Assembly (NCBI RefSeq): GCF_003334785.1 | Contig: NZ_QOWV01000086.1 | DNA from: Escherichia coli | Lineage (GTDB): Bacteria; Pseudomonadota; Gammaproteobacteria; Enterobacterales; Enterobacteriaceae | Length of the DNA: 486 nt | Strand: one strand, 5' to 3' | In this document: one piece after another, positions 1 through 486 of the stretch | Numbering within the stretch: position 1 is the first letter of the stretch | Layout of the letters: the number at the start of each line of letters is the position of its first letter | Position numbers and translations under genes: made by a program | The notes under the pieces: generated by a model | What the model was told of the DNA's origin: nothing | What the model saw: the letters and a program-made list of their open reading frames with translations, nothing else | Database searches by the model: none

Positions 1-167
1 CTGCGTAATACAGCCCGTCTGCCGTCTGGTTTTTCAGGACGGTTTTTCCAGTATCTGTAGCTGCTGCGATGAACCCCGAACACATGGCAGAGTGTGACCA
101 CAGGATAATGCGCTCTGAGTTTCCTGATTATCGAGAACTGTTCAGGGAGTCTGACATCAAGAGCGCG
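1..167 (-). pseudogene. insO: IS3-family (IS911-like) transposase OrfB, N-proximal fragment; 5' side interrupted by IS30, 3' side continues beyond window position 1
   Basis: Reverse-complement translation from 167 down to 3 gives 55 codons with no stop: [56 protein letters not shown]. This matches, from memory, the region of IS911 OrfB just downstream of the OrfA/OrfB frameshift site. No start codon or RBS for this frame is present before the IS30 boundary, consistent with disruption. The symbol insO is the E. coli K-12 name for the IS911 orfB fragment and is assigned from recollection. Confidence 0.7.
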
Positions 168-169
168 GT
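1..169 (-). mobile_element. Fragment of an IS3-family insertion sequence (IS911-like), truncated at position 169/170 by an IS30 insertion
   Basis: The minus strand translates without stops into a sequence with the N-proximal signature of IS3-family OrfB transposases. The sequence stops abruptly where the IS30 terminal repeat begins at 170. No IS911 terminal repeat is visible in the window, so this is an internal fragment. Confidence 0.75.
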
Positions 170-195
170 TGTAGATTCAATTGGTCAACGCAACA
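170..195 (+). repeat. IS30 left terminal inverted repeat (IRL), 26 bp
   Basis: TGTAGATTCAATTGGTCAACGCAACA lies directly upstream of the transposase gene. The matching right repeat is outside the window and cannot be checked here. Confidence 0.85.
172..177 (+). promoter_or_regulatory. -10-like hexamer TAGATT inside the IS30 IRL
   Basis: TAGATT matches TATAAT at 4 of 6 positions. In IS30 biology the IRL is known to supply a -10 element that combines with a -35 (TTGACC) from an abutting right repeat in (IS30)2 junctions. Here the upstream partner would be flanking DNA. The hexamer is seen directly; its function is inferred. Confidence 0.35.
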
Positions 196-218
196 GTTAT
201 GTGAAAACATGGGGTTGC

Positions 219-223
219 GGAGG
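219..223 (+). promoter_or_regulatory. Shine-Dalgarno sequence for the IS30 transposase
   Basis: GGAGG sits 8 nt upstream of the ATG at 232 (GGAGGTTTTTTGAATG), which is ideal composition and spacing. Confidence 0.85.
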
Positions 224-231
224 TTTTTTGA

Positions 232-486
232 ATGAGACGAACATTTACAGCAGAGGAAAAAGCCTCTGTTTTTGAACTATGGAAGAACGGAACAGGCTTC
301 AGTGAAATAGCGAATATCCTGGGTTCAAAACCCGGAACGATCTTCACTATGTTAAGGGATACTGGCGGCATAAAACCCCATGAGCATAAGCGGGCTGTAG
401 CTCACCTGACACTGTCTGAGCGCGAGGAGATACGAGCTGGTTTGTCAGCCAAAATGAGCATTCGTGCGATAGCTACTGCGCTGAAT
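232..486 (+). CDS. insI: IS30 transposase (DDE transposase, IS30 family), N-terminal 85 codons; 3' partial
   Basis: Frame 1 is open from the ATG at 232 to the window end: MRRTFTAEEKASVFELWKNGTGFSEIANILGSKPGTIFTMLRDTGGIKPHEHKRAVAHLTLSEREEIRAGLSAKMSIRAIATALN. I recognise this as the N-terminus of the E. coli IS30 transposase, which carries the helix-turn-helix DNA-binding region that recognises the IS30 ends. A strong RBS precedes it and it lies immediately inside the IRL. It is missing from the supplied ORF track because no stop codon falls in the window. Confidence 0.95.
   Translation, partial: MRRTFTAEEKASVFELWKNGTGFSEIANILGSKPGTIFTMLRDTGGIKPHEHKRAVAHLTLSEREEIRAGLSAKMSIRAIATALN

Follow-up and report, generated by a model that had tools for sequence, protein, structure and literature searches.

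The nested IS911::IS30 arrangement is already known: it is annotated in K-12 and in RefSeq, and hundreds of E. coli genomes carry it. IS911, the interrupted partner, produces its OrfAB transposase by -1 frameshifting at an A-AAA-AAG heptamer, aided by downstream RNA structure. For IS30, a hot-spot consensus of about 24 bp, together with its "non-permitted bases", was reportedly set out by Olasz et al. 1998 (Mol Microbiol 28:691). IS30 inserts either at hot spots or at its own inverted repeats (IRs), and hot-spot insertions give rise to 2-bp duplications (PMC9333248), the simple-insertion outcome also found at the locus described here. The first-pass annotation of this DNA had named both a hot-spot preference, which agrees with this account, and a preference for the inverted repeats of other elements, which is imprecise in that the second target class consists of IS30's own IRs (PMC9333248). 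A natural hot spot of this kind, LHS, spans positions 33244-33498 of phage lambda, with its left part at 33244-33290 (PMC9333248).

In K-12, IS911 is interrupted by IS30A, as stated in a figure legend (PMC9333248); in MG1655 the split copy is IS911A of prophage CP4-6, which reads ...TTAAAAAAGGCT AC, then IS30, then AC CGCGCTCTTGATG. This IS911A::IS30A insertion (insN/insI1) resembles that in the 486-bp stretch analyzed here, termed the window, in its target dinucleotide, its 2-bp duplication, the AC on the sense strand and its A6 heptamer. However, it occupies another chromosomal locus in a truncated IS911 copy, and its IS30 lies in the opposite orientation, with the left inverted repeat (IRL) toward the orfA side rather than the orfB side. 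The second K-12 counterpart, IS911B::IS30D (insO/insI3), is located in the KpLE2 element by fec and leuX. It shares with the window its neighborhood, the orientation of IS30 relative to IS911, and a window-type junction at the AC/GT dinucleotide on the side of the right inverted repeat (IRR). However, on the IRL side, K-12 IS30D adjoins a 327-bp fragment of IS600, whereas the window adjoins IS911 orfB, and the A-run of IS911B is A5 where that of the window's IS911 copy is A6. The IS600 fragment terminates in ...TTAAAAAAAGCA AC, which is the homologous position of IS600 (L004 5681-5700). K-12 IS30D (L004 4460-6007, corresponding to K-12 4507459-4509006) is hence bounded by IS911B at its IRR and by IS600 at its IRL, each cut at the homologous AC, and judging by these flanks the hybrid probably arose when two IS30 copies, each inserted in a different IS3-family element, recombined with each other. 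The window is the unrearranged form of the fec-leuX locus and is simpler than K-12. As a textbook nested insertion sequence, it has little significance beyond correct annotation, and it is useful as a clean reference, free of rearrangement, for how IS911 and IS30 join near fec/leuX.

The window divides into an IS911 segment and the left part of an IS30 copy (Table 1). Window positions 1-169 alone are 99.4% identical to genes that RefSeq names "IS3-like element IS911 family transposase", and their minus-strand translations yield the OrfA C-terminus in one frame and the OrfB N-terminus in another. Assignment to IS911 is further supported by orfA and orfB lying in the 0 and -1 frames and overlapping at the A-AAA-AAG heptamer, and by a rebuilt length of about 1248 bp, against about 1250 bp for IS911. 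The full IS30 copy and its right junction were read from genomes 100% identical to the window, such as E. coli ATCC 11775 (locus L001, in which the window is 4001-4486). Many complete E. coli chromosomes match the window with 100% identity over all 486 bp, and the window's junction is present in 778 of 5426 E. coli genomes, counted by matches that cover at least 80% of the window and hence span the junction. In L001, where IS911::IS30 is positioned between fecE and tRNA-Leu, IS30 occupies 4170-5390, exactly 1221 bp. Its IRL (4170-4195) pairs with the IRR (5365-5390) over 26 nt with 88% complementarity, the arms being 1169 nt apart. The copy differs from K-12 IS30A at 3 nt and from IS30D at 2 nt. 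Its length of about 1221 bp and imperfect 26-bp terminal inverted repeats are those of IS30, as is its one long open reading frame (ORF) for the InsI DDE transposase, annotated by RefSeq as "IS30-like element IS30 family transposase". RefSeq divides this region of L001 into three features: a minus-strand "IS3 family transposase", incomplete and frameshifted, that runs up to the junction; the IS30 transposase; and another transposase fragment, likewise on the minus strand. A further ORF of 68 codons on the plus strand (window 69-275) begins antisense to IS911 and continues through the junction into IS30; RefSeq carries a portion of it (L001 4155-4235) as an incomplete "hypothetical protein". 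It was rejected as a real gene, since the insertion most likely created it as a chimeric artefact.

Table 1. Features of the 486-bp window; positions are those of the window unless marked L001 (E. coli ATCC 11775).
Feature	Position	Strand	Basis or remark
Internal segment of IS911 (IS3 family), about IS911 nt 334-502	1..169	-	99.4-100% identity to annotated IS911/IS3-family transposase genes; minus-strand translations; RefSeq annotation of L001 3263-4167
Coding content of that segment: 5' part of orfB, and the final 13 codons plus stop of orfA	1..169	-	
3' end of IS911 orfA (13 residues), severed from the remaining orfA by IS30	128..169	-	Translation, minus frame 0
Weaker, orfB-side half of the ~24-bp IS30 target, CAAGAGCGCG + GT	158..169	+	4.0 bits (empirical matrix)
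Left GT copy of the 2-bp target-site duplication	168..169		AC on the IS911 sense strand; second copy at L001 5391-5392
IS30 IRL, 26 bp, TGTAGATTCAATTGGTCAACGCAACA	170..195	+	Inverted-repeat pairing in the full copy
Left 317 bp of the 1221-bp IS30 copy	170..486	+	
IS30 transposase (InsI), first 85 codons, MRRTFTAEEKASVFELWKNG...	232..486	+	Translation; RefSeq CDS WP_001254876.1, L001 4232-5383

The junction in the window is a simple insertion of IS30 into IS911 with a 2-bp GT duplication. The first-pass annotation had placed a GT directly against the IRL at 168-169, which is exact, the IRL beginning at 170, and had proposed it as a candidate duplication to be checked at the right junction and against a rebuilt target. 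The duplication is real: GT stands on both sides of IS30 (L001 4168-4169 and 5391-5392), and the right junction, ...GATTGAATCTACA/GT/AGCCTTTTTTAATATT, continues past the IRR as GT AGCCTTTTTTAATATTTCATTCTCC, which is IS911 rather than unrelated DNA. The left flank ends in ...CATCAAGAGCGCG GT, and deleting IS30 and one GT in silico gives ...GAGCGCGGTAGCCTTTTTTAATATT..., an intact IS911 sequence that exists in other copies. The rebuilt join, GAGCGCG-GT-AGCCTTTTTT, is contiguous in uninterrupted IS911, matching exactly over 78 nt in L018 and over 28 nt in L084, and is found also in L002, where the length of the T-run is the sole difference. A match of GT by itself has a chance of 1/16; it is the contiguity of the rebuilt flanks in uninterrupted IS911 copies that decisively identifies the GT as the true target duplication of a simple insertion. 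The uninterrupted target-region stretch occurs in 2449 of the 5426 E. coli genomes when similar sequences are counted (query, the A5 copy of L002; at least 80% coverage). Moreover, at about 1248 bp the rebuilt IS911 is essentially complete, which leaves IS30 as the only large interruption in it.

The target was compared with an empirical half-site matrix, not literally with the published 24-bp consensus string. Half-sites were gathered by scanning viral, genome and metagenome collections for exact IRL sequences and by adding three E. coli loci (L001, L003 and L004), which together yielded 174 left ends of IS30 and 248 end/flank half-sites, grouped into 56 sequence clusters. Most junctions came from the metagenome scan; the scan of genome contigs contributed 15 loci, none from E. 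coli or Shigella. As a guard against circularity, clusters resembling either IS911 flank were removed, together with recognizable orfB-side flanks of other IS3-family elements, and the matrix was trained on one representative of each remaining cluster, giving 40 half-sites unlike IS911, although these database junctions are of uncertain independence and some half-sites possibly derive from diverged IS3-family elements. Read toward the IS end, the matrix consensus is T-AAAAAA-GGC-N-AC, and the full consensus site, approximately TAAAAAAGGCN-NN-NGCCTTTTTTA, is a palindrome, long and degenerate, whose size is that expected. Database junctions thus suffice to recover the long, degenerate target of IS30.

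The IS911 target, TCAAGAGCGCG-GT-AGCCTTTTTTA (TAAAAAAGGCT-AC-CGCGCTCTTGA on the sense strand), consists of one strong half and one weak half. Of its score, 9.4 bits come from the orfA-side half, TTAAAAAAGGCTAC, and 4.0 bits from the orfB-side half, ATCAAGAGCGCGGT; the stronger one, AGCCTTTTTTA, lies outside the window, past the right end of IS30. The real dinucleotide ranks first among 1236 positions of the rebuilt IS911, with 13.36 bits against 8.76 for the runner-up. A fraction of only 2.5e-6 of random positions (n = 400,000) scores as high or higher, and in flanking non-IS chromosomal DNA none of 12,861 positions reaches the score of the target, the maximum being 11.24 bits. In itself the target is modestly palindromic, with symmetry at 6 of 11 positions (p = 0.03). 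The likeness to a hot spot, which had been considered beyond judgment from one junction, is therefore far above chance as measured on the empirical matrix rather than on the published consensus, and the matrix was validated on the lambda LHS. There, its top site within lambda 33200-33520 is 33290-33291, which agrees with the end of the left part of LHS, and lambda was not in the training set. The lambda half-site, TAAAAGTGGCG-AT, and the IS911 half-site, TAAAAAAGGCT-AC, are alike at 8 of 11 positions when read by eye. Both sites are top-scoring under the same matrix, lambda at a lower value (11.5 vs 13.4 bits), and the lambda context, the kil/cIII region, is unrelated to IS911.

The arrangement is very probably explained by a single IS30 that transposed into a natural hot spot within IS911 and left the GT/GT direct repeat. 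Staggered cuts 2 bp apart, followed by repair, would produce this repeat, a chemistry taken from the IS30 literature. The hot spot is the spacer just 3ʹ of the IS911 A-AAA-AAG -1 frameshift heptamer: the A-run with GGC makes up an IS30 half-site that is nearly perfect, and opposite it stands a weaker symmetric copy. An improbable alternative is that the junction stems from rearrangement, whether by recombination of two IS30 copies or by deletion or inversion from an IS30 dimer, in which case the GT would not be a true duplication. Such events do have a precedent in the K-12 IS30D hybrid, with its IRL at IS600 and IRR at IS911B, and individual genomes could differ; flanks are mismatched at several scanned loci, and the IRR-side junction is more common than the IRL-side junction (1210 vs 778 genomes). 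However, genomes identical to the window have IS911 on both sides with the same GT, the two parts join into the uninterrupted element of about 1248 bp, and five independently fetched loci repeat the same paired IS911 flanks, which refutes rearrangement for genomes of the ATCC 11775 type. Least credible of all is that an inverted repeat, belonging either to IS30 or to IS911, attracted the element in place of a hot-spot sequence. The idea was raised in the first-pass annotation, and IS30's own IRs are a documented target (PMC9333248). However, insertion of that kind would give IRL-IRR junctions (PMC9333248), whereas IS30 is flanked here by a 2-bp duplication of IS911. No IRL-IRR junction is found at either flank, and no IS30 IR or IR remnant lies beside the element, the flanks being IS911 coding sequence. 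Furthermore, the insertion point is some 335 nt into IS911 and distant from the IRs of that element.

Descent from one ancient insertion, since inherited or moved as an IS911::IS30 composite, would make the hot spot merely apparent. The junction does occupy one conserved chromosomal place, between fecE and leuX in a KpLE2-type island, in the listed genomes, and common descent probably explains it in many of the 778 genomes. Descent, however, accounts for copy number and not for the choice of site, and as a full explanation it is very unlikely. The opposite-orientation junction of the IS911A::IS30A type, at the same dinucleotide, is present in 1028 genomes; since insertions in opposite orientations, each with an intact duplication, cannot share one event, the same site was struck at least twice independently. 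IS600 and a third IS3-family element have also been struck at the homologous positions, in both orientations, and a matrix built from sites unlike IS911 predicts the IS911 site.

For the host element, insertion of IS30 into the hot spot has an expected consequence. On the IS911 sense strand, IS30 lies 5 nt downstream of the A6G heptamer (ATATT AAAAAAG GCT AC/CG; rebuilt sense strand, ATATTAAAAAAGGCTACCGCGC). IS30 separates orfA from orfB: the final 13 codons of orfA are removed, and 1221 bp now part the slippery heptamer from orfB and from the stimulatory RNA that lies downstream. Because orfA lacks its last 13 codons and the heptamer is parted from orfB by 1221 bp, this IS911 copy should make no transposase: OrfAB should no longer be produced and the copy should be dead. 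In the RNA of the rebuilt IS911, the predicted fold 3ʹ of the heptamer has stems from about 5 nt past the insertion point, and its energy is not significant (z = -0.85).

In L001 3250-3262, the IS911 copy that carries this IS30 has a variant IRL (TGAAGTGGTTTACTG...), ahead of which TGAAGTGG is duplicated, and its IRR-side terminus at 5700-5733 looks degenerate (TGTTGTGGTCAAC...), the terminal IRR reading TGTTGTGG. With a variant IRL and a degenerate IRR side, the host IS911 may have been immobile for more than one reason. Additionally, the A/T run of the slippery heptamer is polymorphic (L001 5397-5402 vs L002 2175-2179 and L004 4449-4453), with six residues (A6) in the window's copy and K-12 IS911A, and five (A5) in L002 and K-12 IS911B. 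Many genomes carry the A5 form with 100% conservation, and it would not yield the orfB frame.

Among the sampled IS30 junctions, which are redundant and non-independent, about 181 of 248 (73%) fall within frameshift windows, namely those of IS911-like elements, of IS600 and of a third IS3-family element. The recurrent dinucleotide is 4-5 nt 3ʹ of an A6-7G heptamer and is used in both orientations (e.g., L007 3214, L011, L020, L033 and L037); in the third element, the site reads GGGACATATTAAAAAAAGCC-GC-GGCGTACTTCGC. The recurrence apparently arises because the slippery A-run, with the G and GC that come after it, is identical to an IS30 half-site. The recurrence explains the frequent IS30-interrupted IS911 and IS600 pseudogenes in E. 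coli and Shigella assemblies. A tentative and rather doubtful generalization is that the IS3-family frameshift window, an A6-7G heptamer followed by GC, is an IS30 hot-spot half-site, such that IS30 systematically nests in and disables IS911, IS600 and their relatives. If true, this would be an antagonism of two IS families that is encoded in sequence, as well as a source of IS30-flanked hybrid structures. In the scan of genome contigs, the exact IS30 IRL was also encountered in assemblies labelled Alteromonadales, Shewanella, Colwellia, Marinifaba, Chryseobacterium and Yersinia aleksiciae, with four copies in Yersinia.
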